From assembly GCA_964573925.1 (NCBI GenBank), contig CAZNLX010000001.1:1-28467 (forward strand): DNA of 28,467 bases, given 5' to 3'. A program made the translations under genes and the position numbers. The notes below the pieces were generated by a model, which saw nothing but the letters and a program-made list of their open reading frames with translations, made no database searches and had not been told where the DNA came from. Of this stretch, positions 9,974-27,348 are shown piece by piece. The DNA comes from an uncultured Intrasporangiaceae bacterium. Its GTDB lineage: Bacteria; Actinomycetota; Actinomycetes; Actinomycetales; Dermatophilaceae. How positions within the stretch are numbered: position 1 is the stretch's first letter; each line of letters starts with the position of its first letter.

Positions 9974-11563
9974 GTGCGTTCACCCCGGCCGAGTTCGGTC
10001 CCGCCGGTCCCGCTGCAGGTCCTGGCAGCTCGGTCCGGGGCGACCCTGCTCGCCGACGACCCGGCCGGGCACCTCGCCGTCACCGGGGTGAGCCTGGACT
10101 CCCGGACGGTCACCTCCGGCGACCTGTATGCCGCCCTCCCGGGCGCCCGCGCGCACGGTGCCTCCTTCGTCCCGGCCGCCCGGGCTGCCGGCGCGGTTGC
10201 CGTGCTCACCGATCCGGCCGGTGCCGAGACGATCCGCGCCACGACCGCAGGGGCGGACGGCATACCCGTGCTGGTGCACCCGCACCCGCGGGCCGTGCTC
10301 GGCGACCTGGCCGCCCAGATCTACGGTCGCCCGGCCGATCGGCTGCGCGTGGTCGGGATCACCGGCACCAACGGCAAGACGACGACCGCCTACCTCGTCG
10401 AGTCGGCGCTGCGCGCCTTGGGTCGGCGCACCGGGTTGATCGGGACGGTGGAGACCCGGATCGGCGACGAGCGGTTGGCCTCGGTGCGCACCACCCCGGA
10501 GGCGACCGACCTGCACGCCATCCTCGCGGTGATGGCCGAACGCGGCATCGACAGCGTCGTCATGGAGGTGTCCAGCCATGCGCTGGCCCAGCATCGGGTC
10601 GACGGGGTGACCTACGAGGTGGCCCTGTTCACCAACCTGTCCCAGGACCATCTCGACTTCCACTCGACGATGACGGACTACTTCGAGGCCAAGGCGGCCC
10701 TGTTCGCGCCCGCCCGGGCCCGTCATGGCGTGGTCTGCGTGGACGACGACTGGGGTCGCGAGCTCGCGGCGCGACGCGGCATACCGCTGGTCACGGTGGC
10801 GTCCGAGGGGGCGGGGGACTGGACCCTGCACCACGGCGAAGGCCCCGACCTCGTCGTCGCCGGCCCGGACGGCGAACACCTGCACCTCACCTGCCACCTG
10901 CCCGGCACCTTCAACCGGGTCAACACGGCGATGGCCGCCGTCGCCCTGCGACGGCTCGGGTATGCCGCGGCCGACGTCGAACGCGCCATGGCCGCCGAGC
11001 CGGTCGTCCCCGGCCGGATGGAGATCGTGCCCGGCGGGCCGGACGACCCCCGGTGCATCGTCGACTTCGCGCACACTCCGGAAGCGGTCGACGCTGCCCT
11101 CGCCGCGCTGCGTCCCACCACCGTGGGCCTGCTCGTCGCCGTCATCGGCGCGGGCGGTGACCGGGACCGGGGCAAGCGCCGGGGGATGGGCGCCGCCGCG
11201 GCCCGATGGGCCGACGTCGTCTACGTCACCGACGACAACCCCCGCTCCGAGGACCCAGCGGTGATCCGTGAGCAGGTCCTGGCCGGTGCCCGCGAGGCAC
11301 TCGCCGCCGCAGGTGAGGACCCGACGGCGGACCCGGGCGGGGGTCGGCCCCGCGCGCTCACCTCCGACGAAGGCCGCGCCGCTCACATCGCCGCGGCGGT
11401 GGCGGCGGCCCGCCAGGTGCCTGGCTCAACCGTCGCTGTCCTCGGCAAGGGTCACGAGACGGGTCAGGACATCGGTGGCGTCGTCCACCCCTTCGATGAC
11501 CGGGTGGCCCTGGCTGCGGCCCTGCGCGTCCCGGCCGACCCCCGACCCGAGGCCCCGCGATGA
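9974..11563 (+). CDS. murE: UDP-N-acetylmuramoyl-L-alanyl-D-glutamate--2,6-diaminopimelate ligase
   Basis: VSLDSR, GITGTNGKTTT, RTTPE, MEVSSHAL, FTNLSQDHLDFH, PGRME, VDFAHTP, GAGGDRDRGKR, DDNPRSED, GKGHETGQ. Confidence 0.96.
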   Translation: MRSPRPSSVPPVPLQVLAARSGATLLADDPAGHLAVTGVSLDSRTVTSGDLYAALPGARAHGASFVPAARAAGAVAVLTDPAGAETIRATTAGADGIPVLVHPHPRAVLGDLAAQIYGRPADRLRVVGITGTNGKTTTAYLVESALRALGRRTGLIGTVETRIGDERLASVRTTPEATDLHAILAVMAERGIDSVVMEVSSHALAQHRVDGVTYEVALFTNLSQDHLDFHSTMTDYFEAKAALFAPARARHGVVCVDDDWGRELAARRGIPLVTVASEGAGDWTLHHGEGPDLVVAGPDGEHLHLTCHLPGTFNRVNTAMAAVALRRLGYAAADVERAMAAEPVVPGRMEIVPGGPDDPRCIVDFAHTPEAVDAALAALRPTTVGLLVAVIGAGGDRDRGKRRGMGAAAARWADVVYVTDDNPRSEDPAVIREQVLAGAREALAAAGEDPTADPGGGRPRALTSDEGRAAHIAAAVAAARQVPGSTVAVLGKGHETGQDIGGVVHPFDDRVALAAALRVPADPRPEAPR

Positions 11564-13029
11564 TCCCGCTCACCCTCGCCGAGCTCGCCCGAGCCACCGC
11601 CGGCCGGCTACACGACTCCGACGGGGTGCCCGTTCCCCCCGGCAGTGAGGTCTTCGACCTCGTCATCGACGGCCCGGTCGTCACCGACTCCCGGGAGTGC
11701 GGACCGGGTGGTCTCTACGTCGCCCGGATCGGTGAGCACGCCGACGGACACGACTTCGTCGACTCCGCTCGAGCTGCCGGTGCCGTGGCAGCGCTGACCT
11801 CCCGCCCGGTGTCCGGCCTGGCCCACCTCGTCGTCGACGACGTGCAGACCGCTTTCGGGGCGCTGGCCCGAGCCGTGCTCGATGCGGCACCCACGGTGAC
11901 CGTCGTCGGGATCACGGGGTCCTCGGGCAAGACCTCGACGAAGGATCTGCTCGCCCAGGTGTTGGCGACCTCCGGTCCGACGGTGGCCCCGGCGGGGTCG
12001 TTCAACGGCGAGATCGGGGTGCCGCTCACCGTCTGCCGGATCACCCGGGACACCCGCTATCTCGTCGTGGAGCTGGGGGCCCGGGGCGTCGGCCACATCG
12101 AGTACCTCACCCGGATCGCCCCACCGCGGATCGGCGTCGTCCTCAACGTCGGCACCGCGCACGTCGGTGAGTTCGGTGGCCGGGAGAACATTGCCCGGGC
12201 CAAGGGCGAGCTCGTCGAGGCCCTGCCCGAGGACGGCGTCGCGGTGCTCAACGCCGACGACCCCCTGGTGACTGCGATGGGGAGCCGGACCCGGGCCCGG
12301 GTCGTCCTCGTCGGCCTGGCGCCCGGGGCCCGGACGCGGGCCGAGGACGTGACGCTCGACCCGACCAGCCGACCCTCCTTCCGGCTGGTCACCCCCGAGG
12401 GCAGTGCGCCGGTGGCGCTGCGTGTGCACGGCGCCCACCAGATCGGCAACGCCCTTGCCGTGGCGGCGGCCGCACTGGCCTGCGGCCTGCCGCTCGCGCA
12501 GGTTGCCGACGCCTTGTCCTCGGCCGGTGCGGTGAGCCGCTGGCGGATGGAGGTCACCGAGCGCAGCGACGGGGTGACCGTCGTCAACGATGCCTACAAC
12601 GCCAACCCGGACTCGATGGCCGCCGCGCTGGCCGCGCTGGCGGTGATGGCCACCGATGCCCAGGGCCGACGGCGGCGCACCTGGGCGGTTCTCGGGGAGA
12701 TGCTCGAACTCGGGGACGAGTCCCGGCAAGCCCACGCCGGAACAGGTGCTCGAGCCGTCGCCGAGGGGATCGACGTCCTCGTCGCCGTCGGTCCCGGAGC
12801 GGCCGGGATCGCCGAAGGTGCGCGGGAAGCAGTCGCCCGGGCGGCGGGCACGGACGGGTCGCCGACCGAGGTGCTCACCGTGACCGACGCGGATGCGGCA
12901 TACCTGCTGTTGTCCGAGAAACTCCGCCCCGGTGACGTCGTGTTGTTCAAGTCCAGCCGGGATGCCGGACTACGGTGGCTCGGGGACCGCATCTCCGCGA
13001 CGGTCCGAGGGAGCGAGGTCGGGTCGTGA
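11560..13029 (+). CDS. murF: UDP-N-acetylmuramoyl-tripeptide--D-alanyl-D-alanine ligase
   Basis: GITGSSGKTSTKD, SFNGEIGVPLT, VELGARGVGHI, NDAYNANPDSM, LGEMLELG, LFKSSR. ATGA overlap with murE. Confidence 0.96.
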   Translation: MIPLTLAELARATAGRLHDSDGVPVPPGSEVFDLVIDGPVVTDSRECGPGGLYVARIGEHADGHDFVDSARAAGAVAALTSRPVSGLAHLVVDDVQTAFGALARAVLDAAPTVTVVGITGSSGKTSTKDLLAQVLATSGPTVAPAGSFNGEIGVPLTVCRITRDTRYLVVELGARGVGHIEYLTRIAPPRIGVVLNVGTAHVGEFGGRENIARAKGELVEALPEDGVAVLNADDPLVTAMGSRTRARVVLVGLAPGARTRAEDVTLDPTSRPSFRLVTPEGSAPVALRVHGAHQIGNALAVAAAALACGLPLAQVADALSSAGAVSRWRMEVTERSDGVTVVNDAYNANPDSMAAALAALAVMATDAQGRRRRTWAVLGEMLELGDESRQAHAGTGARAVAEGIDVLVAVGPGAAGIAEGAREAVARAAGTDGSPTEVLTVTDADAAYLLLSEKLRPGDVVLFKSSRDAGLRWLGDRISATVRGSEVGS

Positions 13030-14108
13030 AGGGCGTGCTCGTGGCCGGGGCCACCTCGCTCGTGCTGGCCCTGCTCGGCACGCCGTGGTTCATCAAGTGG
13101 CTGGTCAAGCGCCAGTACGGCCAGTTCATCCGGGACGACGGACCGACGTCGCACCGCACCAAACGCGGGACCCCGACGATGGGCGGGACGGTCATCGTCG
13201 GCGCCACGCTCGTTGCCTACTTCGTCGCGCACCTCGCGCTGGGGACCTGGCCGTCGGTGAGTGGTCTGCTCGTGCTCTTCCTCATGGCCGGGCTCGGCTT
13301 GGTGGGCTTCCTCGACGATTTCATCAAGATCTCCCGACAGCGCAGCCTCGGGCTGCGGACCAAGCAGAAGCTCGTGGGGCAGGGGCTCGTCGGGGTGACC
13401 TTCGCGGTCCTGGCCCTGCAGTTCGAGAACGCCGGCTACCGCACTCCCGCCTCGACGGCGATCTCCTTCGTGCGGGACACCCGCTTCGACCTGGCCTTTG
13501 CCGGCCCCGCGATCGGATTGGTGCTGTTCGTCCTCTGGGCGAACTTCATCATCACCGCGATGTCCAACGGGGCCAACCTTACCGACGGGCTCGACGGGCT
13601 GGCGACCGGTGCCTCGACGATGATCTTCGGTGCCTATCTGCTCATCGGCATTTGGACGAACAACCAGAACTGCCAGACCAACCCGGGCCTCAAGTGCTAC
13701 GAGGTCCGGGACTCCCTCGACCTGGCCATCGTGTCCGCCGCCGCCATGGGTGCCTGCTTCGGCTTCCTGTGGTGGAACGCCTCGCCGGCCAAGATCTTCA
13801 TGGGCGACACCGGTTCGCTCGGCCTCGGTGGGCTCATCGCCGGCCTGGCGATCACGACCCGCACTCAGTTCCTCTCGGTCATCCTGGCCGGACTGTTCGT
13901 CCTGGAGACGTTGTCGGTGCTCATCCAGGTCGGGGTCTTCAAGGCCACGAGGAAACGCTTCTTCCGAATGGCACCCCTGCACCACCACTTCGAGATGCTC
14001 GGGTGGGAGCAGATCACCGTCGTCATCCGGTTCTGGATCATCGCCGGGCTGTTCGCCGCGCTCGGCCTGGGCATCTTCTACGCCGAATGGGTGGTGGGCT
14101 CGACATGA
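13026..14108 (+). CDS. mraY: Phospho-N-acetylmuramoyl-pentapeptide transferase
   Basis: GQFIRDDGPTSHRTKRGTPTMGG, GFLDDFIK, SNGANLTDGLDGLA, PAKIFMGDTGS, MAPLHHHFE. GTGA overlap with the murF stop. Confidence 0.96.
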   Translation: MKGVLVAGATSLVLALLGTPWFIKWLVKRQYGQFIRDDGPTSHRTKRGTPTMGGTVIVGATLVAYFVAHLALGTWPSVSGLLVLFLMAGLGLVGFLDDFIKISRQRSLGLRTKQKLVGQGLVGVTFAVLALQFENAGYRTPASTAISFVRDTRFDLAFAGPAIGLVLFVLWANFIITAMSNGANLTDGLDGLATGASTMIFGAYLLIGIWTNNQNCQTNPGLKCYEVRDSLDLAIVSAAAMGACFGFLWWNASPAKIFMGDTGSLGLGGLIAGLAITTRTQFLSVILAGLFVLETLSVLIQVGVFKATRKRFFRMAPLHHHFEMLGWEQITVVIRFWIIAGLFAALGLGIFYAEWVVGST

Positions 14109-15667
14109 CCGAGCTGCACGAGCTGGCCGGGTCGGCCGACGACGGCTATGAGCCGCGACCGGGGCTGACCCATCGGGACGCCGACTGGAGCGGCCTGCGG
14201 GTGCTCGTCGCAGGGCTGGGGATCAGTGGCTTTGCCGCAGCCGACGCCCTGTGGGAACGCGGGGCCATCGTCACGGTCGTGGACGCCAGCGCACCGGGCG
14301 CCTCCCGAGCCGTCGATGAGCGGACCCAGATCCTCACCGTTCTCGGTGTGGACGTCCGGCTCGGCGTCGAACACACCCAGGGGCTGCCCACCGATCGGCT
14401 CACCGACCTCGTCGTCACCTCGCCAGGCTGGCGGCCGAGCCAGCCCCTGCTGGCCGAGGCGGCGGCGCGCGGCATACCGGTGTGGGGTGAGGTCGAGTTG
14501 GCCTGGCGGATGCGGCCCGCCCAGGGTGCCGCCCCCTGGCTCACCGTGACCGGAACCAACGGCAAGACGACGACCGTCAACATGCTCGCGAGCATCCTGC
14601 GGGCCGCCGGCCTGCGGGCCACGAGCGCCGGGAACGTCGGCACCCCGCTGCTCGAGGCAGTGCTGCACCCGCAGCCCTACGATGTGCTCGCCGTCGAACT
14701 GTCCAGCTTCCAGTTGCACTGGCAGCGGTCCCTGGCCCCGGTCGCATCGGCCTGCCTCAACGTCGCCGCGGACCACATCGACTGGCACGGCTCGTTCGAG
14801 GAGTACCTGCGCGCCAAGGGACGGGTCTTCCGCAACACCCACCTCGCGTGCATCTACAACGTCGCCGACCCCCTCACCGAGCAACTGGTCATCGACGCCG
14901 ACGTCGTCGAAGGATGCCGGGCGGTCGGCTTCACCCTCGGCGTCCCGGCGCCGTCGATGATCGGTCTGGTCGAGGAGGTCCTGGCCGACCGGGCCTTCGT
15001 CGAGCAGCGTCACCACTCGGCGGCCGAACTGGCCACCATCGCCGATGTCCAGGGCGAGGCCCGCACGATCGCCCCGCACTACCTGGCCAATGCCCTCGCT
15101 GCCGCCGCCCTGGCCCGGGCCTACGGGGTCGGGCCGATCTCGGTCCGCGACGGGTTGCGCGCCTTCCGGCCCGACCCGCACCGGATCGCCGAGGTCGGCA
15201 CCGTCGGCGGGGTTCGCTACGTCAACGACTCCAAGGCGACCAATCCGCACGCCGCCGAGGCCGCGCTGGCCGCCTTCGACAACGTCGTCTGGGTGGCCGG
15301 CGGGCTGCTCAAGGGCGCCGACGTGGACAGCTTGGTGGAGAAGGTGGCCGGCAAACTGCGTGGTGCCGTGCTCATCGGACAGGATCGGGCGCAGGTTGCC
15401 CAGGCGCTGGCCCGACACGCCCCGAATGTCCCCGTCGTCGACGCGGGTGGCCCCGACACTGGAGGAATGCAGCCCACGGGGGAGGACGCCGACGAGATCA
15501 TGGACCGGGTGGTCACCCTCGCGGCGAGCCTGGCGCGCCCGGGTGACGTTGTGCTGCTAGCCCCCGCCGCAGCCTCGATGGACATGTTCGCCAACTACGG
15601 GGAACGTGGTAGCGCCTTCGAACGAGCCGTCGGCCGTCACGCGCACACCCCCGGTTCCCGGCCGTGA
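14105..15667 (+). CDS. murD: UDP-N-acetylmuramoyl-L-alanine--D-glutamate ligase
   Basis: GLGISGFAAA, VTSPGWRP, TGTNGKTTT, ELSSFQL, NVAADHIDWHGS, PHR, NDSKATNPHAA, LAPAAASMDMFANYGERG. ATGA overlap with mraY; the upstream ORF-track extension is spurious. Confidence 0.96.
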   Translation: MTELHELAGSADDGYEPRPGLTHRDADWSGLRVLVAGLGISGFAAADALWERGAIVTVVDASAPGASRAVDERTQILTVLGVDVRLGVEHTQGLPTDRLTDLVVTSPGWRPSQPLLAEAAARGIPVWGEVELAWRMRPAQGAAPWLTVTGTNGKTTTVNMLASILRAAGLRATSAGNVGTPLLEAVLHPQPYDVLAVELSSFQLHWQRSLAPVASACLNVAADHIDWHGSFEEYLRAKGRVFRNTHLACIYNVADPLTEQLVIDADVVEGCRAVGFTLGVPAPSMIGLVEEVLADRAFVEQRHHSAAELATIADVQGEARTIAPHYLANALAAAALARAYGVGPISVRDGLRAFRPDPHRIAEVGTVGGVRYVNDSKATNPHAAEAALAAFDNVVWVAGGLLKGADVDSLVEKVAGKLRGAVLIGQDRAQVAQALARHAPNVPVVDAGGPDTGGMQPTGEDADEIMDRVVTLAASLARPGDVVLLAPAAASMDMFANYGERGSAFERAVGRHAHTPGSRP

Positions 15668-16947
15668 CCAGCACCGTCGAGCGGCCCTCCCCGAGCCGAG
15701 CCCAGCGGGTGGGCGGAGCCCCGGGGACTTGGCTGCCCGAACGGCTCAGGCCCGTTGCCGAGCGCTTCGACAGCCCGGTCACTTCCTACTACGTCCTGCT
15801 CGGGGTGACCACCGCCCTGCTGCTGATCGGCCTGGTCATGGTCCTCTCCGCATCGATGATCACGGCCTACAAGGACGACGGATCCTCCTACGCGGTCTTC
15901 CTCAACCAGGTGAAGTTCGCCGCGCTGGGTCTGGTCGGCTTCGCGGTCGCGTCCCGGCTGAGCATCACCTGGTGGAAGCGGCTGGCCCTGCCGTCCCTGG
16001 CCCTGGCCGTCGTGCTTCAGGCGCTGGTCTTCGTTCCCGCGTTGGGGTTGTCCAAGGGCGGCAACCGCAACTGGCTGCGCCTGGGGGCGGGTCTGTCCCT
16101 GCAGCCCTCGGAACTGACCAAGATTGGGCTCGTCCTGGTCGGTGCGCTCATCCTGTCGAACAAGCGAGCTCTGCTCGGTCGGGCCTCGCACGCCGTCGTG
16201 CCCTATCTCGTCCCGATCGCCGCGGTGACCATCGGGCTCGTCCTGGTCGGTCACGACCTCGGCACGGCCTTGGTCCTCATGGGGATCGTCGGAGCCGTCA
16301 TGTATGCCGCGGGCGTCCCGGCCAGGCTGTTCGTCGCCGCTGCCGGAGTGGTCGCCGCGGTCGCGGTGGCCCTGGTCGTCACCAGTGCCAACCGGATGGA
16401 TCGAATCGGCAACTGGTTGTCCGGCTCGTGCACCGACCCCAACGGAGAGTGCGGCCAATCGGTGCACGGTCTCTACGCCCTTGCCGACGGCGGGTGGTGG
16501 GGCGTCGGGCTCGGGGCCAGCAAGGAGAAGTGGTCCTGGCTGCCCGAGGCCCACAACGACTTCATCTTCGCGATCATCGGCGAGGAACTGGGCCTGCCGG
16601 GCACGTTCGTCATCCTGGCCCTGTTCGGGCTGCTGGCCACGGCCTGCTACCGGATCGTCACCCGCTGCACCGACCAGTTCGTGCGGATCGGGGCCGCCGG
16701 CGCGATGGCATGGATCCTCTTTCAGGCGATGATCAACATCGGTGCCGTGATCGGCCTGCTCCCGGTCATCGGCGTCCCGCTGCCGCTCGTCTCGGCCGGT
16801 GGGTCGGCTCTGGTCACCACTCTGCTGGCGATGGGGATGCTCGTCTCGTTCGCCCGGTCCGAACCGGGGGCGGCCGAGATCCTCGCCGCCCGTCCAGGGG
16901 TGATCCAGCGTTCCCTGGCCGTCCTGCCCCGCCGTCGGCGGGGCTGA
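15664..16947 (+). CDS. ftsW: SEDS peptidoglycan polymerase FtsW
   Basis: GLVMVLSAS, GNRNWL, QPSELTK, DLGTA, WLPEAHNDFIFAIIGEELG, PVIGVPLPLVSAGGS. GTGA overlap with murD. Confidence 0.95.
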   Translation: MTSTVERPSPSRAQRVGGAPGTWLPERLRPVAERFDSPVTSYYVLLGVTTALLLIGLVMVLSASMITAYKDDGSSYAVFLNQVKFAALGLVGFAVASRLSITWWKRLALPSLALAVVLQALVFVPALGLSKGGNRNWLRLGAGLSLQPSELTKIGLVLVGALILSNKRALLGRASHAVVPYLVPIAAVTIGLVLVGHDLGTALVLMGIVGAVMYAAGVPARLFVAAAGVVAAVAVALVVTSANRMDRIGNWLSGSCTDPNGECGQSVHGLYALADGGWWGVGLGASKEKWSWLPEAHNDFIFAIIGEELGLPGTFVILALFGLLATACYRIVTRCTDQFVRIGAAGAMAWILFQAMINIGAVIGLLPVIGVPLPLVSAGGSALVTTLLAMGMLVSFARSEPGAAEILAARPGVIQRSLAVLPRRRRG

Positions 16948-16968
16948 AACTCATCGGAAGCTCGCACC

Positions 16969-18102
16969 ATGTCGTCTGATGTTCCTGCTTCGCACGCCCG
17001 GCCCGCCGAGCGCCCGTTGACCTCCGTCCTGCTCGCCGGGGGTGGTTCGGCAGGGCACGTCTCCCCGCTGCTGGCCACGGCAGACGCGCTGCGCCGCCGG
17101 CTGCCGCAGGTGCGGGTCACCGCCTTGGGCACCAGGACCGGTCTGGAGGCCCGCCTCGTGCCGGCCCGTGGCTACGATCTGCGCTTCGTGCCCCGGGTGC
17201 CGCTGCCCCGGCGCCCCGACGCCCAGGTGCTGCGCTTCCCAGGCGCCCTGCGGGCCGCCGTCGACGCAGCTCTGGCCGCCATCGATGACACCGGAGCGCA
17301 GGTCGTCGTGGGTTTCGGCGGCTACGTCTCCTCGCCGGCCTATCTCGCGGCCAAGCGTCGCGGCATACCGATCGTCGTGCACGAGCAGAATGCGCGGCCC
17401 GGCTTCGCCAACCGCCTCGGCGCGCGGCTGACCCGGCATGTGGCCACCACCTTCCCCAGCACCACGTTGCCGCACGCCACCTGCCTCGGTATGCCGCTGC
17501 GCCGGGAGATCACCACTCTGGACCGGGCGGCGCTGCGGGACCGAGCCAGGGCGGAGTTCGGTCTGGACCGGCACCGGACCACGCTGCTGGTGACCGGCGG
17601 TTCGCTCGGTGCTGCTCGCCTCAACGAGACGATGGCCGCCCGCGCCGCGGAACTCACCGACGCGGGCGTCCAGGTGTTGCACGCCGCGGGGACCGGCAAG
17701 GGCTTCACCCCGAACGTCAGCCCGGGCTCGGCGCCCTATGTCGTGCGTGAATACGTCGACCGGATGGAGTTGGCCTATGCGGCCGCCGACCTCGTGGTCT
17801 GCCGGGCCGGTGCCAACACGGTCTGCGAGTTGACCGCGGTTGGGCTGCCCGCCGTCTACGTCCCGCTGCCGATCGGCAACGGCGAGCAGCGAATCAACGT
17901 CACCGACGTCGTCGCGGCCGGTGGCGGAATCCTCGTCGAGGACGCCGCCCTCACCCCGGTTTGGGTCGATGTCGTCCTCCTGCCGCTGCTCACCGACGAT
18001 GCGCGGATCGCCCGCATGGGCGACGGCGCAGCCGGCCTCGGGCGACGGGACTCCGACGAGGCGCTGGCCGACCTCGTCGTCCGGGCGGCGAGCGGACGAT
18101 GA
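16969..18102 (+). CDS. murG: Lipid II GlcNAc transferase MurG
   Basis: AGGGSAGHVSP, GFGGYVS, HEQNARPGFANR, TGGSLGA, AADLVVCRAGANT, PLPIGNGEQ. Confidence 0.96.
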   Translation: MSSDVPASHARPAERPLTSVLLAGGGSAGHVSPLLATADALRRRLPQVRVTALGTRTGLEARLVPARGYDLRFVPRVPLPRRPDAQVLRFPGALRAAVDAALAAIDDTGAQVVVGFGGYVSSPAYLAAKRRGIPIVVHEQNARPGFANRLGARLTRHVATTFPSTTLPHATCLGMPLRREITTLDRAALRDRARAEFGLDRHRTTLLVTGGSLGAARLNETMAARAAELTDAGVQVLHAAGTGKGFTPNVSPGSAPYVVREYVDRMELAYAAADLVVCRAGANTVCELTAVGLPAVYVPLPIGNGEQRINVTDVVAAGGGILVEDAALTPVWVDVVLLPLLTDDARIARMGDGAAGLGRRDSDEALADLVVRAASGR

Positions 18103-19604
18103 CGCTCCCGCGGACCCGGTTCGACTACACCGCGGCCCCGCGGCCGGTCGCCGAGCTCGGCGCGGTCCACCTCGTGGGTATCGGTGGTGCGGGGATGTCC
18201 GGGATCGCCCGGATGCTGCATGCTCGCGGCATACCGGTCACCGGTTCGGACGGTCGCGACTCGGCGACCCTGGCTGCGCTGCGGGACGAGGGCATCGACG
18301 TCCGGGTCGGGCACGACGCTGCGGCGATCGCGGGGGTCGACACGCTGGTCATCTCCTCGGCGATCCGCGAAGACAACCCCGAGGTGACCGCGGCGCGCGC
18401 GGCCGGCCGCCCCGTGCTGCACCGTTCCCAAGCCCTGGCCGCTCTGGCGCAGGGGTCCGCCCGACGGATCGCGGTCGCGGGCGCCAACGGCAAAACGACG
18501 ACCTCCTCGATGCTCGCTGTCGTGCTCACCCTCGCCGGGCGGGATCCCTCCTATGCGGTGGGTGGGGACCCGGTTCAGCTGGCGGCCAACGCCCGGCTGG
18601 GTTGCGGCCAGGTGTTCGTCATCGAGGCCGATGAGAGCGACGGCTCGTTCGTCGGCTACCGCCCGCAGGTTGCCCTGGTGACCAGTGTCCAGCCCGATCA
18701 CCTCGACTTCTGGGGAACCGAGCAAGGGGTGGCCGAGGGCTATCGCGCCTTCGTCGACTCGATCACGCCGGGGGGAGTGCTGGTCGCCTGCTTCGACGAT
18801 CCAGGGGCTCGAGAGTTGGCCGGGTATGCCGCGAGCCGAGGCGTCCAGGTCGTCGGCTACGGGGAGTCCGCCGATGCCGAAGTGCGCCTAGCGGACCTGC
18901 GGCCGGCCGGGCTGGGAGCCCGCGCGGGAGTCTTCGTGGACGGCGCGGCATACGAGCTGGAGTTGGTCGTGCCGGGCGAGCACAACCTGCTCAACGCCGC
19001 GGGAGTGCTGGCCATCGCCCTGTACGGACTGTCCTCGGCCGGGGCCTCGGGTGCGGACCGAACCCCGGAGGCCGTGCGGACCTGGCTCGACCTCTTGTCG
19101 AGGTTTAGGGGCGTGCGTCGCCGGTTCGAGCGGGTCGGTGAGGTCGGCGGGGTGACCGTCGTCGACGACTACGCGCACAACCCGGCAAAGGTCCGAGCCG
19201 CGGTGGCGACCGGGCGCGCCGCCGTCGGACCAGCGGGACGGCTCGTCGTCCTCTTCCAGCCGCACCTCTACTCGCGGACCCGGGATTTCGCCGCCGACTT
19301 TGGTGCCGCCCTTGCCTCGGCCGACGTCGTGCTCGTCGCCGACGTGTATGCCGCCCGCGAGGACCCCTTGCCCGGGGTGACCGGGGCACTGGTCGCCGAC
19401 GCCGTGCGGGCGACCGGCTCACTGGCCAAGGTCGAGTTCGTTGCGGGCGCCGACCGGGTCCTTCCGGCGCTGCGCGCCGCCGTCCGGTCCGGCGATGTGG
19501 TGCTCACCGTGGGGGCAGGCGACGTGACCACCGTCGGACCGGCGCTACTGGCCGCCCTGGCCGCCGACGGCGCTGCTGCCGACCGCCGGACGGGCCAGGG
19601 ATGA
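18099..19604 (+). CDS. murC: UDP-N-acetylmuramate--L-alanine ligase
   Basis: HLVGIGGAGMSGIA, GANGKTTTSSM, EADESDGSF, DHLD, GVRRRFE, DDYAHNP, FQPHLYSRT, GAGDV. ATGA overlap with murG. Confidence 0.96.
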   Translation: MTLPRTRFDYTAAPRPVAELGAVHLVGIGGAGMSGIARMLHARGIPVTGSDGRDSATLAALRDEGIDVRVGHDAAAIAGVDTLVISSAIREDNPEVTAARAAGRPVLHRSQALAALAQGSARRIAVAGANGKTTTSSMLAVVLTLAGRDPSYAVGGDPVQLAANARLGCGQVFVIEADESDGSFVGYRPQVALVTSVQPDHLDFWGTEQGVAEGYRAFVDSITPGGVLVACFDDPGARELAGYAASRGVQVVGYGESADAEVRLADLRPAGLGARAGVFVDGAAYELELVVPGEHNLLNAAGVLAIALYGLSSAGASGADRTPEAVRTWLDLLSRFRGVRRRFERVGEVGGVTVVDDYAHNPAKVRAAVATGRAAVGPAGRLVVLFQPHLYSRTRDFAADFGAALASADVVLVADVYAAREDPLPGVTGALVADAVRATGSLAKVEFVAGADRVLPALRAAVRSGDVVLTVGAGDVTTVGPALLAALAADGAAADRRTGQG

Positions 19605-20329
19605 GCGTCCGACGATTGCCCTCGGCCAGGGTTCGCCTCCAGCAGCGGGCCGTGGCCGTCCGGCGCCGACCTCTGCGCATCGTCGCAGTGCTGGCCGCGG
19701 CTGTGGCCGTGCTGGTCGGTGGGATCTGGCTGGTCTGGGCCAGTCCGGTCTTCGTCGTCGACGAGATCGTCGTCACCGGCGTCGAGGGCGCCGATCGGGA
19801 GGCCGCCCTGGGTGTCGTGGGGGTCCCACTCGGTCAGCCACTGGCCAGAGTCGACACCGCTGCAGTCGCCCAGCGCGTGGGGAGCCTCCCGATGGTCCGG
19901 CGAGCCGTGGTCACGCCGGCCTGGCCGCGCACCCTGCAGGTGGTGGTGACCCCGCGGGTAGGACTGCTCGTGGTGCGCACCGATGACGGGGTGCTCAAGG
20001 TTGTCGACGAGGACGGGGTGGCCTTCAGGGACGTGGACAGCCCTCCTCAGGGCCTGGCGGTGGTCAACGGATCGGGGCGCCAGCCGGCGCCAGAGGGCCT
20101 GCGCGCGGTCATCGACGTGCTGCGCCTGCTGCCGACCGACCAACGAGGCCGCGTTTCGGAGATCACGGTGACCAGCGCGAGCCTGGTGACCTTCACGCTC
20201 GGCGACGTCCAGGTCGTGTGGGGCGGTCGCGGGGCGGAGGAGAAGAAGCTCAAGGTGCTCCAGGTGCTCCTGGCGACCAAGCCCAAGGTCATCGACGTCA
20301 GCGCGCCGGACACCCCGGTGACTCGATAG
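19601..20329 (+). CDS. ftsQ: Cell division protein FtsQ/DivIB
   Basis: Single TM helix, a POTRA-like segment (GQPLARVD...WPRTLQVVV) and C-terminal IDVSAPDTPV. Lies between murC and ftsZ. Confidence 0.9.
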   Translation: MSVRRLPSARVRLQQRAVAVRRRPLRIVAVLAAAVAVLVGGIWLVWASPVFVVDEIVVTGVEGADREAALGVVGVPLGQPLARVDTAAVAQRVGSLPMVRRAVVTPAWPRTLQVVVTPRVGLLVVRTDDGVLKVVDEDGVAFRDVDSPPQGLAVVNGSGRQPAPEGLRAVIDVLRLLPTDQRGRVSEITVTSASLVTFTLGDVQVVWGGRGAEEKKLKVLQVLLATKPKVIDVSAPDTPVTR

Positions 20330-20444
20330 CCGACCCCTCGAGTGATCCGTGGTTGTGGCACGAAACACCAGTCACATCAGTCACTGAGGCCACTCTGACC
20401 GCACCTGTCACGAACGCAACGGACAATCTCAGGGCGAGGTCGAA

Positions 20445-20491
20445 GACACGCCGCGACGGTCGTTGGAAAGACTCCGTCGAATGCCTACGGT
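20445..20491 (+). promoter_or_regulatory. Candidate ftsZ promoter with upstream GACAC (WhiA-type) pentamer
   Basis: TTGGAA (20463-20468), 17 nt, TACGGT (20486-20491), plus GACAC at 20445-20449, within a 343-nt ftsQ-ftsZ gap. Confidence 0.5.
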
Positions 20492-20672
20492 CGGTCCGAC
20501 GGTCCGGTCGAGGCGACACTCTATCTCGACTAGACCTTCAGGTTCGACAGCGGTTCTCCGGCGTGTCGGGTGGGAGCCTCATCCGACGGCCGGGGTGCCG
20601 AGGTCGAACGGTCAGCAGCTCCAGCCCGGACGAGACGAATCGCGCGCCGAACGCAGACGAAAGGCCACCACC

Positions 20673-21851
20673 GTGGGTGCTACACCGCAGAACTACCTCG
20701 CCGTCATCAAGGTCGTCGGCATCGGTGGTGGTGGCGTCAACGCCATCAACCGGATGATCGACGTCGGCCTCAAGGGCGTCGAGTTCATCGCCATCAACAC
20801 CGACGCGCAGGCGCTGTTGATGAGTGACGCCGACGTCAAGCTCGACGTGGGCCGGGAGCTCACCCGGGGCCTGGGCGCCGGGGCGGACCCCAACGTCGGT
20901 CGCAAGGCGGCGGAGGACCACGCCGAGGAGATCGAGGAGGTCCTGCGCGGCGCGGACATGGTCTTCGTCACCGCCGGTGAGGGCGGCGGCACCGGCACCG
21001 GCGGCGCGCCAGTGGTGGCCCGGATCGCCAAGTCGCTCGGCGCGTTGACCATCGGCGTGGTCACCCGCCCGTTCACCTTCGAGGGCCGTCGGCGCGCCAA
21101 CCAGGCCGAGAGCGGGATCGGCAGCCTTCGCGAAGAGGTCGACACCCTCATCGTCATTCCCAACGACCGGCTGCTGTCGATCAGCGACCGGAACGTCTCG
21201 ATGATGGACGCCTTCCGCAGCGCCGACCAGGTGCTGCTGTCCGGCGTCCAGGGCATCACCGACCTCATCACCACCCCGGGTCTCATCAACCTCGACTTCG
21301 CCGATGTCAAGTCGGTCATGCAGGGGGCTGGCTCGGCCCTCATGGGGATTGGCTCGGCCCGCGGTGAGGACCGGGCCGTCCAGGCTGCCGAGTTGGCGAT
21401 TTCCTCGCCGCTGCTCGAGGCGAGCATCGATGGCGCGCACGGCGTGCTGCTGTCCATCTCCGGCGGCTCGGACTTGGGCCTCTTCGAGATCAACGAGGCA
21501 GCCCGCCTGGTCCAGGAGGCCGCGCACCCGGAGGCGAACATCATCTTCGGGACGGTCATCGACGACGCCCTGGGCGACGAGGTCCGGGTCACCGTCATTG
21601 CGGCCGGCTTCGACGGCGGCAACCCCACGCCGCGCAGCGACGCCCGTGCGCTTGGCCAGGTGCAGGCCGCGCCCGGCCGCCCGGCAGTTGCGACCACCCC
21701 CGTCGCGCCGGCGACCCCGGCCGAGCCGGTCGTTCCGAGCATGCCCGCGCCAATGCACACCCCCGTCGTGGTTCCGCCCGTGCCGGCCCCGCCGTCCACG
21801 GTGAACTTCGACGACGGCGACGACCTGGACGTCCCCGACTTCCTCAAGTAG
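20673..21851 (+). CDS. ftsZ: Cell division GTPase FtsZ
   Basis: [20 protein letters not shown], tubulin motif [25 protein letters not shown] and C-terminal [13 protein letters not shown] start after GAAAGG. Confidence 0.98.
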
Positions 21852-21881
21852 CCGGACGCTGGCCCGGGTGCAGTCGCGCAC

Positions 21882-21887
21882 TAGCGT
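21882..21887 (+). promoter_or_regulatory. Candidate -10 element (TAGCGT) for a leaderless or near-leaderless pgeF transcript
   Basis: TANNNT hexamer 8 nt before the pgeF ATG, with no SD sequence. Confidence 0.4.
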
Positions 21888-21895
21888 GTGAGCCG

Positions 21896-22693
21896 ATGTT
21901 CTTCTGGCGTGGGCGCTACGGCACCGTCGAGCTGGCCGTCACCGGTCGGCGCGGCGGCGCGAGTGCTGCCCCGTTCGACGGACTCAACCTCGCCCGCCAC
22001 GTCGGCGATGACCCCCGAGACGTCATGGCCAACCGGGCCGTGCTGGCCGCGCAGCTGCAGCTCCCACCCGAGCGGCTGGTCTTCATGAACCAGTGCCACG
22101 GGGCGGTGGTGCAGGTCGTCGACGGCCCCTGGCCGGCCGAACCGCCAGAGTGCGACGCCGTGGTGACCGCCTCGACCGAGCTCGCGCTGGTGGCCCTCGT
22201 CGCCGACTGCGTCCCGGTCTTGCTGGCCGACCACGATGCCGGGGTCATCGCCGCGGTGCACGCCGGCCGGCCGGGGTTGATGGCCGGGGTGGTGACGGCC
22301 GCATTGGACGCCATGGGCGACCTGGGCGCGCGTGCCCCGCGTGCGGTCGTTGGCCCTTCGATCTGCGGCCGCTGCTACGAGGTTCCGGAGGCGATGCGCC
22401 GGGACGTGGCCCGGATCGTTCCCGAGAGCGCGACGGTCTCCTGGGCCGGCACCCCGGCGGTCGATGTCGCCGCAGGGGTCGTCGCCCAGTTGGCTCGACG
22501 GTCCGTGCCGGTCTCCTGGGTGCCCGGGTGCACCCGCGAGGACGAGCGTCTCTACTCCTACCGGCGCGCGCAGCGGACCGGGCGGTTCGCCGGCGTGGTG
22601 CTGCGCCGAGGCGAACCAAGCCCGGATGGCGATGCCGGCCGGGCGGCATACCCGCAGCTGTGGACCGTCCCGAGCGGGCCGGAGGAACCATGA
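21896..22693 (+). CDS. pgeF: Peptidoglycan editing factor PgeF (YfiH/laccase-like family)
   Basis: LNLARHVGDD, MNQCHG, DAVVT, LVADCVPVLL, AVHAGRPG, GPSICGRCYEV, CTRED..LYSYRR. Canonical position after ftsZ. Confidence 0.92.
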   Translation: MFFWRGRYGTVELAVTGRRGGASAAPFDGLNLARHVGDDPRDVMANRAVLAAQLQLPPERLVFMNQCHGAVVQVVDGPWPAEPPECDAVVTASTELALVALVADCVPVLLADHDAGVIAAVHAGRPGLMAGVVTAALDAMGDLGARAPRAVVGPSICGRCYEVPEAMRRDVARIVPESATVSWAGTPAVDVAAGVVAQLARRSVPVSWVPGCTREDERLYSYRRAQRTGRFAGVVLRRGEPSPDGDAGRAAYPQLWTVPSGPEEP

Positions 22694-23439: not shown

Positions 23440-23519
23440 CGAGCCCAGACCCGTATGCCGTGGCGTTGCCCGGGCAGGCAGGTCGAGATGGCACCGACGG
23501 ACATAAAGGGGATGGGCCC

Positions 23520-23981: not shown

Positions 23982-24044
23982 TCCCCGACGGTTCGTCAGG
24001 TCGCGGGGCTGGCCTGGCGACCGGTGATCGGAGACGATAGGTCG

Positions 24045-24326: not shown

Positions 24327-24406
24327 CACAATGACGCGCAGGGCGCAGGCGACGCCCGGACGACCGGGGGCGACGGAGTCGGTTGGGTCGACAGGACTCG
24401 ATTAGG

Positions 24407-24412
24407 TAACGT
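24407..24412 (+). promoter_or_regulatory. Candidate -10 element (TAACGT) for divIVA
   Basis: TANNNT in an AT-richer patch 36 nt upstream of the ATG, followed by a GAGGTGA RBS. Confidence 0.45.
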
Positions 24413-24448
24413 TGGCTCGCCACTATCTACTGTCAGTCGAGGTGACCC

Positions 24449-25717
24449 ATGGCGCTCACGCCCGAACAAGTGCTCAACAAGCACTTCCAGACGACCCAAT
24501 TCCGCAAGGGGTACGACGAGCGCGACGTCGATGACTTCCTCGACGAGATCGTCGCTGAGATGCGGTCGTTGCTGGCCCAGCGCGACGACTACAAGCAGCA
24601 GCTCGCCGATTGCCGGGCCGGTCGGGGGATGTCCGACGCCCCGACGATGGCGGTGGCCTCCCCCGTCGACACCCGTGCCGCGGAGGAGCTGGAAGCCCGG
24701 CTCGCCGACGCCCAGGCTCAGCTGAGCCAGGCTCATGCCGAGCACGCCCGGGTCACCGAGTCGATCAACGGCGCCCGCGCCGAGTTCGACAGCCTGCAGG
24801 GCCGCCTCGACAGTCTGCGCGGCTCGCTGGTCGACGCTCAGGCCCAGGCGGACGGCGCCCCGCGCATGGTCCAAGACGCTGAGGCTGCGGTGGCCGATGC
24901 CCAGCGTCGGGCCGAGGAGTTCTCCTCGCGTGCCGCCGAGGCGGAGAAGCACCTCTACGAGGTCGAGTCGCGGGTGGCTGAGGCCGAGGCCAAGGTCCAG
25001 GAGGCCGCAGCCCGGGTCCATGACGCGGATCAGCGCGCTGCCGAGGCGCACGCCCGCGCCGAGCAGGCCGAGGCGGCGGCTCTGGCCGCGGCCCAGCGCG
25101 AGCAGGCCTCACTTGCCCAGGCTGCCGCTCAGCCCGAGGCGGCCGCTCCGGTCGCGGCGTTCGCGGGTGGGGCGATGGGTGGCACGGCAAGCGCCGCCGG
25201 CCTCATCGAGCTGGCCCAGCGCCTGCACGACGAGCACGTCGCCCAAGGCGAGGCCAAACGCCACGAGTTGATCAACGCGGCTGAGGCTCGCCACCACGAG
25301 TTGCTCTCGACCGGCCAGGCCCGTTTCGACGAACTGGTCGGTAGTGGTCAGCGCCAGCACGACGAGTTGCTCTTCACGGCCCAGAGCCGTCACGACGAGT
25401 TGCTCGGCACGGCCCAGCACCGTCACGACGAGCTGGTCGGCGCGGCCCAGCGCCAGCACGACGAGATGCTCGCCGAGGCTGCCAACCTCAAGGAGCAGAT
25501 GCTCACCGAGGCCCGCGAACGCTCCACCGGGATGGTCGCCGAGGCTCAGCAGAAGAAGGCCGCCGTGCTCGAGGAACTCGAGGGCCAGCGCACCGTCATT
25601 GAGCGCAAGATCGAGGACCTGCGGTCCTTCGAGCGCACCTACCGTTCGCAGCTGCGGTCCTACTTCGAGGACAAGCTCGCCGAGCTCGCCGGCACCGGGG
25701 CGGACGCCTCGGCCTGA
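24449..25717 (+). CDS. divIVA: Polar growth protein DivIVA/Wag31, long form (422 aa)
   Basis: MALTPEQVLNKHFQTTQFRKGYDERDVDDFLDEI N-terminal domain, long coiled coils and C-terminal IEDLRSFERTYRSQLRSYFE. Confidence 0.95.
   Translation: MALTPEQVLNKHFQTTQFRKGYDERDVDDFLDEIVAEMRSLLAQRDDYKQQLADCRAGRGMSDAPTMAVASPVDTRAAEELEARLADAQAQLSQAHAEHARVTESINGARAEFDSLQGRLDSLRGSLVDAQAQADGAPRMVQDAEAAVADAQRRAEEFSSRAAEAEKHLYEVESRVAEAEAKVQEAAARVHDADQRAAEAHARAEQAEAAALAAAQREQASLAQAAAQPEAAAPVAAFAGGAMGGTASAAGLIELAQRLHDEHVAQGEAKRHELINAAEARHHELLSTGQARFDELVGSGQRQHDELLFTAQSRHDELLGTAQHRHDELVGAAQRQHDEMLAEAANLKEQMLTEARERSTGMVAEAQQKKAAVLEELEGQRTVIERKIEDLRSFERTYRSQLRSYFEDKLAELAGTGADASA
25226..25555 (+). repeat. Ten in-frame 33-nt (11-aa) degenerate tandem units within divIVA
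   Basis: HDEHVAQGEAK / RHELINAAEAR / HHELLSTGQAR / FDELVGSGQRQ / HDELLFTAQSR / HDELLGTAQHR / HDELVGAAQRQ / HDEMLAEAANL / KEQMLTEARER / STGMVAEAQQK. Confidence 0.85.
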
Positions 25718-25957
25718 TCCGGTGACCCGCCGGCGCGACCCTCACGGTCGGCGTATGCCGCCGAGCGCCGCGCGACGTGGGGCCTGGACTTCGGTCCGGG
25801 CCCCACGTCTGTTTCGTGTCCTTGATCACCATCGAGTAACGGCGCGGCGCGTTGTTCGCCCGCATGACTCCCACGATGCGCTTTCGTGGCTTATCCTCGG
25901 GCGCGATCGCCCCTCATTCGAACGGGCGACCGAGACCCGGAAGGGATCCGAGCGGCC

Positions 25958-26734
25958 ATGGCTGCGACGAAGGGCACATCCGCCGCCCCGGTGGCCAAGG
26001 CCGTGACGAAGGCGGCGTCCTCGGCCCGGAAGGCGGCCGCGCTCGCCCCGGCGAAGAAGACCACGGCGCCCGCCGCCACGTCGGCACGGGCGACGCCTGC
26101 GCCTGCCAAGACGGCCAAGGCGGCGACGAAGGCCACGGCGGTGCCGGCGAAGAAGGTGGCGACGAAGGCCGCTCCCGTGCCGGCCAAACCGGCCAAGAAG
26201 GTGGCTACGAAGGCCGCTCCTGCGCCGGCCAAGCCGGCCAAGAAGGCGGCGACCAAGGCCGCTCCCGTACCGGCCAAGCCGGCCAAGAAGGCGGCGACCA
26301 AGGCCGCGCCGGCGCCGGCCAAGCTGGTCGCGGTCGACGACAGCCCACTGCCGGTCCGCGCCGACGAGGAACCGTGGACCGAGGCCGAGCTCAAGGAGAT
26401 CCGGCGCGAGATCGAGCGTGACATCGCCCGTGGGCTCGCGGACATCGCCACGGCGGAGGAGGACCTGCAGGGCCTCATCTGGGACGCCGGTGACGGCTCC
26501 GGCGACGATCAGGCCGACGCCGGTGCCAAGACCTACGAGCGCGAGCAGGAGATCTCGCTGGCCAACATCTCCCGGGACAAGCTCGCGCAGAACCGCCACG
26601 CCCTGGAGCGGCTCGACAACGGCAGCTACGGGGTGTGTGAGTCCTGCGGCGAGCCGATCGGCAAGTTTCGACTCCAGGCCGCCCCGCGTGCGACCCTATG
26701 CAGGTCATGCAAGGAGAAATCAGAACGCGGGTGA
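25958..26734 (+). CDS. Histone-H1-like N-terminus fused to a DksA/TraR C4 zinc-finger domain (DdbA-like), about 258 aa
   Basis: Ala/Lys/Pro-rich N-terminal half, coiled-coil tip DDQADAG (DxxD) and zinc finger CESC...CRSC. Located before lspA, like Streptomyces ddbA. Confidence 0.88.
   Translation: MAATKGTSAAPVAKAVTKAASSARKAAALAPAKKTTAPAATSARATPAPAKTAKAATKATAVPAKKVATKAAPVPAKPAKKVATKAAPAPAKPAKKAATKAAPVPAKPAKKAATKAAPAPAKLVAVDDSPLPVRADEEPWTEAELKEIRREIERDIARGLADIATAEEDLQGLIWDAGDGSGDDQADAGAKTYEREQEISLANISRDKLAQNRHALERLDNGSYGVCESCGEPIGKFRLQAAPRATLCRSCKEKSERG
26144..26323 (+). repeat. Four tandem 45-nt (15-aa) PAKK units
   Basis: PAKKVATKAAPVPAK / PAKKVATKAAPAPAK / PAKKAATKAAPVPAK / PAKKAATKAAPAPAK. 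Confidence 0.92.
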
Positions 26735-27348
26735 CCTCGCCCGCCCCCCAGCCCGGCGCGCCCGGGCGGTCCCGTCGGTTGACCGTCCTCTTCGTCGTCG
26801 TGGCCGTCGTCGTGTATGCCGCCGACCAGGCCAGCAAGCTGTGGGCCGTCGCTGCCCTGACCGACGCGCAGGCCCATGAACTCATCGGGACCTTCCTGAG
26901 GTTGTACCTCGTGCGCAACCCGGGGGCTGCCTTCTCGATGGGCACCGGCAGCACCTGGGTGCTCACCCTGCTGGCGGTCGCCGTCCTCGTCGTCCTGGTC
27001 CGCAGCAGTCGCAAACTCGGCAGCACCGCCTGGGCCTGGGCGTTCGGCCTCATCCTCGGCGGCGCACTCGGCAACCTCACCGATCGGCTCACCCGTTCAC
27101 CCGGATTCGGCCGCGGGCACGTCGTGGACTTCATCGACTACAACGGGTGGTTCGTCGGCAACGTCGCAGACATCGCCATCGTCGCGGCGGCGATGCTCAT
27201 CGGTCTGCTCGCCCTGCGCGGCATCGGCCTGGATGGGACCCGGGAGGGGATGGCAGCTCCCGGTCGCTCGCAGCCGGCCGCCAGCGGCACCGAGCCGGAC
27301 CGCGAAGCCGGGGCGGACGGCATACCGGACTCCGGGCGCGATGGGTGA
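26731..27348 (+). CDS. lspA: Lipoprotein signal peptidase II
   Basis: [42 protein letters not shown] overlap with the upstream gene. Confidence 0.95.

Follow-up and report, generated by a model that had tools for sequence, protein, structure and literature searches.

The systems closest to the DNA word reported here are the uptake signal sequence (USS) of the Pasteurellaceae (AAGTGCGGT) and the DNA uptake sequence (DUS) of the Neisseriaceae (GCCGTCTGAA and its dialects), next to Chi (GCTGGTGG in E. coli) and the highly iterated palindrome HIP1 of cyanobacteria (GCGATCGC). Chi sequences vary among taxa. The FtsK-orienting polar sequences (KOPS), the SpoIIIE recognition sequences (SRS) and the TraB recognition sequences (TRS) are 8-bp asymmetric words that are read directionally by a DNA motor (FtsK, SpoIIIE and TraB, respectively). 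The word under study is the octamer CGGCATAC, which is asymmetric and non-palindromic (reverse complement GTATGCCG) and occurs 29 times in the stretch of 28,467 nt analysed here, hereafter called the window, which derives from an uncultured Dermatophilaceae/Intrasporangiaceae bacterium. According to Pfam scans and metagenome gene calls, the window is an actinobacterial division and cell wall (dcw) cluster with a GC content of 71.6%. Wherever reading frame and amino acids permit, the codon that completes the word is taken, even if it is the rarest synonym (ATA, TAT, GCA or GGT). The ATA codons are a by-product of this genome-wide DNA word; selection on proteins or on translation is not their cause. 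In related lineages the word is altered by a single base or missing altogether, and the codons at the same sites follow their own variant.

Among the 299 isoleucine codons in the 25 called genes of the window (9140 codons), ATC was counted 276 times, ATT 17 times and ATA six times. A preceding sequence-only reading had located six in-frame ATA codons within copies of the octamer (10258, 10777, 14470, 17361, 18227 and 27318), and these are indeed all in-frame ATA codons of the window. Its readings of the 21 coding copies were reproduced exactly, with Gly-Ile(ATA)-Pro in six, Tyr(TAT)-Ala in eight, Ala(GCA)-Tyr in five and Gly(GGT)-Met-Pro in two copies, as was the spelling of the peptide RGIP as CGC GGC ATA CCG in MurE, MurD, MurG and MurC. 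ATA was used by six of six isoleucine codons in the context C GGC ATH CC, and by none of the 293 in all other contexts, a distribution that rules out chance. TAT was chosen in 12 of 14 TAY GCC G contexts compared to 16 of 126 elsewhere, GCA in five of seven xCG GCN TAC contexts, and GGT in each of three Gly-Met-Pro peptides.

The rule also held beyond the window. A 43-kb extension of the source organism (L091, window and L087) adds 16 copies of the word, and over this sequence ATA was found in eight of eight cases in the context C GGC ATA CC and in none of 432 elsewhere (Fisher p = 3e-17); both new ATA codons, in dnaE and in an rluA-like gene, sit where the rule predicted them. A metagenome scan with the intergenic hairpin form of the motif yielded at least 120 loci, and 51 non-redundant, high-GC, motif-rich loci among the matches were taken as an independent set from unrelated genomic regions (439 kb, approximately 108,000 codons), with reading frames set by an open reading frame filter based on GC content at third codon positions. 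In these loci, ATA made up 39 of 72 codons (54%) in CGGC ATH C versus 19 of 3956 (0.5%) elsewhere (p = 2e-59). TAT was used in 147 of 153 G TAY GCC G contexts (19% elsewhere), GCA in 101 of 122 xCG GCN TAC contexts (5.7% elsewhere) and GGT in 30 of 32 GGN ATG CCG contexts (12.7% elsewhere), so that these three codons were chosen in 83-96% of their motif-compatible contexts. Gly-Ile-Pro takes ATA only if the full octamer can form, namely in 27 of 40 cases with GGC and a preceding C, but in 0 of 19 other arrangements. The two outcomes that the sequence-only reading had named as speaking against it were therefore not seen: ATA is far from equally frequent outside the motif, and Gly-Ile-Pro is not mostly written with ATC where the octamer fits. 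All six frames are in use in the motif-rich loci (YA 147, AY 101, GI[PR] 39, GMP 38, RHT 21 and VCR 19), and since both strands are used as well, no reading at the RNA or peptide level fits.

A comparison of 80 orthologous dcw loci, in which the density of CGGCATAC ranges from zero to approximately one per kb, gave the same result for conserved residues. Gly-Met-Pro of MurG is written as GGT ATG CCG in 10/14 motif-rich, 8/37 intermediate and 0/26 motif-free loci, and x-G-I-P of MurD with ATA in 10/14, 11/40 and 0/26, respectively. The corresponding numbers are 8/11, 15/29 and 0/23 for TAT in L-Y-A-A of MurE (TAC being used in the motif-free loci), and 7/11, 7/28 and 0/23 for GCG GCA TAC in A-A-Y of RsmH. 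At these identical residues the motif-free relatives take the preferred codons ATC, TAC and GGC or GGG. Over all aligned codons, ATA was found in CGGC ATH C in 23/42 cases in the rich, 40/121 in the intermediate and 0/66 in the motif-free group, while its share outside this context was 0.3-0.9% in all three groups alike. The proposal of the sequence-only reading that the motif acts at the level of the DNA and overrides codon preference is therefore supported by the context-bound codons as well as by the orthologues. Its statement that the octamer recodes essential genes holds for the rare synonyms in cell-wall genes, mainly as a synonymous recoding. The frequencies of YA, AY, GIP and GMP peptides were not raised in the dcw proteins of motif-rich genomes, and conservation at motif sites was not lower than at random sites of the same proteins (0.58 vs 0.61, P = 0.29), from which it follows that the recoding is chiefly synonymous. 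Differences between the window and its relatives were seen in MurE (RGIP vs A[GTS]VP), MurC (RGIP vs RGIR or RGVA, and GYAA vs [DE]RAR) and FtsW (MYAA vs LFAA); conservative replacements (such as Val to Ile and Phe to Tyr) go along with the word at variable positions that tolerate them. At the murE site at 10777, Val to Ile and Ala to Arg both go along with the motif. As a positive control, GGCAAGAC was enriched as a protein by-product (GKT P-loop, Mur ligases), in motif-free relatives too.

The genes of the window, derived from Pfam scans and gene calls, and the copies of the word are as follows.

2-448, + strand: 3' end of the principal sigma factor gene (sigA-like)
515-5239, - strand: tgpA, a DUF58 gene and moxR
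+ strand, first part: mraZ, rsmH, ftsL, ftsI, murE (9974-11563), murF, mraY, murD (14105-15667), ftsW
+ strand, middle part: murG (16969-18102), murC (18099-19604), ftsQ, ftsZ, pgeF, yggS, sepF, yggT
+ strand, last part: divIVA, a dksA/traR-type gene, lspA (26698-27348), rluD
10258-10265, + strand: copy in murE, GAC GGC ATA CCC (D-G-I-P), in-frame ATA at 10262; relatives have variable xxVP
10777-10784, + strand: copy in murE, CGC GGC ATA CCG (R-G-I-P), in-frame ATA at 10781; relatives have A[GTS]VP
14470-14477, + strand: copy in murD, CGC GGC ATA CCG (R-G-I-P), in-frame ATA at 14474; motif-free relatives use ATC
17361-17368, + strand: copy in murG, CGC GGC ATA CCG (R-G-I-P), in-frame ATA at 17365
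18227-18234, + strand: copy in murC, CGC GGC ATA CCG (R-G-I-P), in-frame ATA at 18231; relatives have RGIR, RGVA or RGLP
27318-27325, + strand: copy in lspA, GAC GGC ATA CCG (D-G-I-P), in-frame ATA at 27322
2617-2624, + strand: copy antisense to tgpA (a - strand gene), ATG TAT GCC GGG (M-Y-A-G)
3813-3820, + strand: copy antisense to the DUF58 gene, ACG TAT GCC GTG (T-Y-A-V)
10126-10133, - strand: antisense copy in murE, CTG TAT GCC GCC (L-Y-A-A), rare TAT at conserved residues
10960-10967, - strand: antisense copy in murE, GGG TAT GCC GCG (G-Y-A-A), variable site
16302-16309, - strand: antisense copy in ftsW, ATG TAT GCC GCG (M-Y-A-A); relatives mostly LFAA
18824-18831, - strand: antisense copy in murC, GGG TAT GCC GCG (G-Y-A-A), variable site
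19346-19353, - strand: antisense copy in murC, GTG TAT GCC GCC (V-Y-A-A)
26814-26821, - strand: antisense copy in lspA, GTG TAT GCC GCC (V-Y-A-A)
1940-1947, - strand: sense copy in tgpA (a - strand gene), ACG GCA TAC (T-A-Y)
7121-7128, + strand: copy in rsmH, GCG GCA TAC (A-A-Y)
12896-12903, + strand: copy in murF, GCG GCA TAC (A-A-Y)
18946-18953, + strand: copy in murC, GCG GCA TAC (A-A-Y), variable site
22644-22651, + strand: copy in pgeF (Cu-oxidase_4 family), GCG GCA TAC (A-A-Y)
7094-7101, - strand: antisense copy in rsmH, GGT ATG CCG (G-M-P)
17489-17496, - strand: antisense copy in murG, GGT ATG CCG (G-M-P), rare GGT at invariant residues
473-511, no strand: hairpin with a perfect 18-bp stem, GGGAGGGCGGCATACCCC-agg-GGGGTATGCCGCCCTCCC, holding inverted copies at 481-488 (+) and 496-503 (-)
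4204-4211, - strand: intergenic copy in the gap from the moxR stop to the DUF58 start
5362-5369, + strand: intergenic copy upstream of moxR, in the divergent moxR-mraZ region
5493-5500, - strand: intergenic copy upstream of mraZ
23453-23460, - strand: intergenic copy in the yggS-sepF gap
25753-25760, - strand: intergenic copy downstream of divIVA
28376-28383, + strand: intergenic copy in the rluD-dnaE gap

The 29 copies (14 in + and 15 in - orientation) comprise 21 coding and eight intergenic ones, gene starts being those of the metagenome gene calls. The sub-word GGCATACC was seen 18 times in the window compared to 0.28 expected, with a maximum of two in 100 dinucleotide-preserving shuffles. 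The extended consensus is R-CGGCATAC-C, the preferences for R before the word and for C after it both being weak; the information content is limited to 8-10 bp, made up of the octamer itself, R at position -1 and C (or G) at position +9. The word occurs about once per kb in coding and non-coding DNA and on both strands alike. Over the 43 kb of contiguous sequence, which form part of one replichore around dcw, 23 copies lie on the + and 22 on the - strand. Its density was 1.36/kb in the 439 kb of motif-rich loci, whereas 340 kb of motif-free relatives contained no copy, which corresponds to an enrichment of more than 400x over these relatives; measured against shuffles and a Markov model, the enrichment was 25-64x. 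A dispersed repeat such as a repetitive extragenic palindrome or a miniature inverted-repeat transposable element is ruled out by the 8-10 bp of information and by the 21 of 29 copies that lie in genes and in frame. Few or no copies were seen in ftsQ and ftsZ (19354-22643), in divIVA (24449-25717) and over the greater part of the principal sigma gene (2.2 kb, L091). With counts this small, the scarcity in ftsZ, divIVA and the sigma gene may tentatively be ascribed to an avoidance of the rare-codon word in highly expressed genes, as has been reported for HIP1. The contig of the window recurs in several metagenomes with an identity of >99.7%, and its nearest genomes belong to the Dermatophilaceae/Intrasporangiaceae (Lapillicoccus, Terrabacter, Humibacillus, Nostocoides/Tetrasphaera and Knoellia), with MurD identities of at most 80%. 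No tRNA genes were found in the window.

Two inverted copies at 473-511 form a hairpin (-50 kcal/mol, z = -7.0) that looks like a terminator; it separates two convergent genes, the sigA-like gene with its stop at 448 and tgpA with its stop at 515. Inverted pairs give GC-rich hairpins 17-44 bp past stop codons, and 34 of 54 such hairpins in the independent loci lie less than 150 bp 3' of genes. In L092, another strain or assembly, approximately 150 bp of differing sequence ending in a run of N adjoin the hairpin at window positions 448-515, and the 3' end of sigA is only 94.7% identical compared to >99.7% elsewhere. This difference is a local recombination or an assembly breakpoint.

In several relatives, the main word is replaced clade by clade by a one-base variant: CCGCATAC in L008, L010, L011 and L043, CGGCATCC in L056 (27 copies), L060 and L080, CGGCATTC in L048 and L035, and CGACATAC in L041. 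These dialects bring rare codons of their own (GAT GCC G and GCA TCC; ATT and AAT GCC G; CGC ATA C and TAT GCG G) and follow the clades of a neighbour-joining tree built from nine dcw proteins, in which the window groups with the motif-rich L018, L040 and L053 beside the CCGCATAC clade. In L012-L020 (Terrabacter, Humibacillus), CGGCATAC with 5-11 copies and CGGCATCC with 4-10 copies are both raised; a dialect transition may be underway there, or both words may be recognised. Other octamers were over-represented in motif-free relatives, i.e. CCGGGACC (24 copies in L079), CGCCGTCC (23 copies in L084), GTACGACG (14 copies in L057), GTACGGCG (10 copies in L082), CAGCCTTC in L085, GAAGGGAG in L071 and TGATCACC in L023. 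The family as a whole may tend to carry hyper-abundant words that turn over fast. L068 contains 13 copies of CGGCATAC and 13 of CTGGTGGT/ACCACCAG (1.7 expected from relatives), the latter resembling E. coli Chi. Runs of G8/C8 were enriched in L029 and L086 (11-12 overlapping octamer counts versus 0.2 expected from relatives), which could be homopolymer tracts or assembly artefacts.

The best explanation overall, to which we give an even chance, is a DNA-level word with a role in genetic exchange similar to that of USS and DUS. Somewhat more tentatively, and by analogy with these systems, the word may be recognised by a lineage-specific DNA-binding component that biases uptake or transformation and homologous recombination. 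In the course of genetic exchange this component would act on chromosomal DNA through the word, and a preference in DNA uptake or transformation that precedes homologous recombination is its likeliest form. Alleles that gain the word would be re-imported preferentially and would spread by molecular drive, as described for USS in the Pasteurellaceae and DUS in the Neisseriaceae. The dialects would then result from receptor and word co-evolving, and the inverted pairs would have been co-opted as terminator hairpins. Orientation would apparently be read: within approximately 800 bp, a further copy seems redundant if it points the same way, but not if it is opposite. The pattern is closest to USS and DUS with respect to its density, its symmetry between strands, the dialects, the terminator hairpins and a placement in proteins that is neutral (PMC2817400, PMC3630211, PMC1939737), and it is also close to HIP1, which is an octamer conserved beyond its codons (PMC5861425). 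The sequence-only reading had likened the motif to DUS and USS; this likeness stands as an analogy of pattern, with uptake as a putative role. Natural transformation is known in the same order from Micrococcus luteus (PMC4322843, PMC8467076). No competence genes were found in the 43 kb examined. The literature search found no published description of CGGCATAC as such a word, literal-sequence matches being swamped by methods papers on adapters. The octamer is a substring of the Illumina P7 flow-cell oligo (...GACGGCATACGAGAT), which accounts for these matches. An adapter artefact is ruled out by flanking bases unlike those of the adapter (G/A in front of the word and C/G behind it) and by copies that lie in frame in conserved proteins and at orthologous sites of independent isolates and metagenome-assembled genomes.

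Several observations weigh against an uptake role. Uptake sequences are not known from Gram-positive bacteria, and our literature search found none. The reading frames of USS track preferred codons (PMC2817400), whereas CGGCATAC overrides codon preference because its AT-rich core ATA forces non-preferred codons in a genome of 70% GC. One-mismatch forms of USS are enriched approximately 11x (PMC1939737), in contrast to the 24 one-mismatch forms of CGGCATAC, which sum up to 0.73/kb versus 0.83/kb in motif-free relatives (0.87x), only those keeping the ATA core being raised (2-5x). Furthermore, the orientation of close neighbours is anticorrelated. In the independent loci (L215-L334, selecting hairpins removed), the ratio of opposite to same orientation was 214:64 for neighbours less than 800 bp apart (p = 5e-20) and 58:68 for those at a distance of at least 800 bp. 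Opposite orientation was found for 32 of 44 neighbour pairs in the 43 kb of the source organism (p = 0.004), where the closest copies on the same strand are 397 bp apart and opposite copies down to 15 bp. The gaps between same-strand copies are over-dispersed there (coefficients of variation of 0.59 and 0.65 vs 0.94 expected), and spacing regardless of orientation is near random. Convergent and divergent neighbour pairs were equally common, and the rule was not seen for the CGGCATCC dialect in L056 (12/26). Given that uptake by H. influenzae is reported to be independent of orientation (PMC1939737), the simple USS model does not predict the orientation rule, which is predicted by no known uptake-sequence model. 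This anticorrelation and the lacking enrichment of one-mismatch forms are departures from the USS model. Whatever mechanism is proposed has to account for the orientation rule, which adds a new quantitative constraint.

Among the alternatives, a Chi-like signal comes next, which we consider unlikely. A helicase-nuclease of the RecBCD or AdnAB class, reading one strand as it translocates, would stop degrading DNA and load RecA where it meets the octamer in the right orientation, and words in both orientations would protect and repair two-ended breaks and mark 'self'. CGGCATAC is an asymmetric 8-mer of the size of E. coli Chi, and a redundancy specific to orientation, as seen in the same-strand distances of at least 397 bp and the ratio of 214:64, fits signals that are evenly spaced and read on each strand. 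The word is also missing from a lytic phage of a motif-rich host: Tetrasphaera phage TJE1 has two copies in 49 kb, i.e. chance level, whereas its host N. jenkinsii reaches 0.93/kb in the dcw locus. Searches of viral contigs and of plasmids for motif hairpins gave chance-level matches only, the viral ones with a median GC content of 51% and nearly all with just the selecting pair. Chi-like recognition is opposed by the even distribution over the two strands (23:22 in the 43 kb around dcw, which belong to one replichore), as all characterised Chi sites are co-oriented with replication, and by the degree of enrichment (more than 400x over relatives and 25-64x over shuffles and the Markov model, in contrast to approximately 6.7x for Chi in E. 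coli; PMC1939737). At least five variants plus loss within one family would be fast for a recognition site of the RecC or AddB type, and terminator hairpin pairs are foreign to Chi.

Less probable still is a word like HIP1, serving as the target of an orphan DNA methyltransferase or of a strand-specific nicking or repair enzyme and kept by selection on its distribution per strand, for example for strand marking in repair in these MutS/MutL-less actinobacteria, or for chromosome organisation. HIP1 and CGGCATAC are both octamers of extreme abundance inside and outside genes, conserved beyond codon preference, with non-preferred codons and lineage variants (PMC5861425, PMC4390886), and an even spacing per strand would be in keeping with an enzyme acting on a single strand of an asymmetric site. 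However, CGGCATAC is non-palindromic, and the function of HIP1 itself is unresolved, so that this reading explains little. A fully specified asymmetric 8-mer is, to our knowledge, unusual among methyltransferases. The order in which we rank the explanations is accordingly a role like that of USS and DUS, favoured if short of even odds in this comparison, then the clearly less likely Chi-like signal, and then the slightly weaker analogy to HIP1.

A neutral mutational bias, or a bias similar to very-short-patch repair that turns near-cognate sequences into a functionless octamer, is improbable. It would be consistent with the depletion of GC-rich one-step precursors in motif-rich DNA, i.e. CGGCGTAC (7.7-fold), CGGCACAC (2.4-fold) and CGGCATGC (1.8-fold), which is strongest for those one transition away from CGGCATAC. 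However, the word is reached from precursors that differ at positions 5, 6 and 7, by transitions as well as transversions, and via amino-acid changes that need two substitutions (GTG to ATA), so that no single lesion or repair specificity suffices. Its density of 1.36/kb exceeds the summed baseline of the main precursors, and an anticorrelation of orientation over hundreds of bp is unexpected from a local mutational process. The lack of enrichment in phage TJE1, which replicates in a motif-rich host, also argues against a host-wide mutational bias.

A cause at the level of protein or translation, be it a conserved G-I-P/RGIP peptide of Mur ligases or bldA-like regulation through ATA in cell-wall genes, retains hardly any probability and is excluded: MurC, MurD and MurG do share xGIP behind a helix as a recurring element of Rossmann type, and G-I-P of MurD is conserved in relatives, but motif-free relatives code the same residues as GGC ATC CCG, G-I-P lacking the preceding C or GGC never takes ATA, only six of 21 coding copies have ATA in frame while other frames and antisense copies show context-specific rare codons and eight copies are intergenic, ATA copies also occur in lspA, dnaE and rluA-like genes, and in the source organism ATA is found only with the full octamer, most copies having no in-frame ATA.

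If the word marks 'self' DNA for uptake or recombination, sequence-biased genetic exchange is not confined to two proteobacterial families. An uptake role would predict natural transformation and dialect-dependent recombination barriers in a family that includes wastewater phosphorus-removing bacteria, and would offer a transformation tool for it, with the word placed on donor DNA. The Dermatophilaceae/Intrasporangiaceae comprise Tetrasphaera/Nostocoides, polyphosphate accumulators of wastewater. It is a more speculative and rather doubtful proposal that the octamer and its dialects represent the first uptake or self-recognition sequence system of a Gram-positive phylum, which would evolve fast, read orientation, channel homologous exchange within Dermatophilaceae/Intrasporangiaceae lineages, saturate synonymous sites and keep the ATA-decoding tRNA-Ile2/TilS indispensable. 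Whatever its function, the word shows clearly how, in nature, a constraint on the DNA itself can beat codon optimisation in essential genes, with relevance for codon-usage models, the prediction of gene expression and the detection of horizontal gene transfer in these genomes. On the practical side, reads of these genomes could be clipped if adapters are trimmed naively with short seeds.

In comparison to the described systems, CGGCATAC resembles USS and DUS in being short, non-palindromic, equally distributed on both strands at about one copy per kb and both genic and intergenic. Like USS, it occurs in all reading frames with a bias to frames that encode common residues, and its sites are as conserved as others (PMC2817400). 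Clade-specific single-base dialects (PMC3630211) and inverted pairs as terminator-like hairpins after genes are shared with DUS. It differs from both in belonging to another phylum (Actinomycetota), where an uptake role is putative, in the near-saturation (83-96%) of synonymous opportunities in three frames, and in the anticorrelated orientation of neighbouring copies; USS, moreover, roughly doubles its tripeptides, whereas CGGCATAC raises no peptide frequencies in dcw proteins. With Chi it has in common that it is an asymmetric 8-mer over-represented in the chromosome whose orientation seems to matter, in contrast to Chi, however, it has no strand skew in 43 kb, an enrichment that is higher by orders of magnitude, a turnover of dialects within a family and terminator hairpins. 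HIP1 is likewise a genic and intergenic octamer with non-preferred codons, lineage variants and non-random spacing (PMC5861425, PMC4390886), but it is a palindrome that overlaps known methyltransferase sites and shows a spacing periodicity of tens of kb, whereas CGGCATAC is asymmetric and exerts its orientation effect below 800 bp. KOPS and SRS are strongly polarised towards dif, a polarity that was not seen for CGGCATAC with its ratio of 23:22 on the 43-kb segment of one replichore, and TRS repeats are clustered in the clt locus of plasmids, whereas CGGCATAC is distributed genome-wide.

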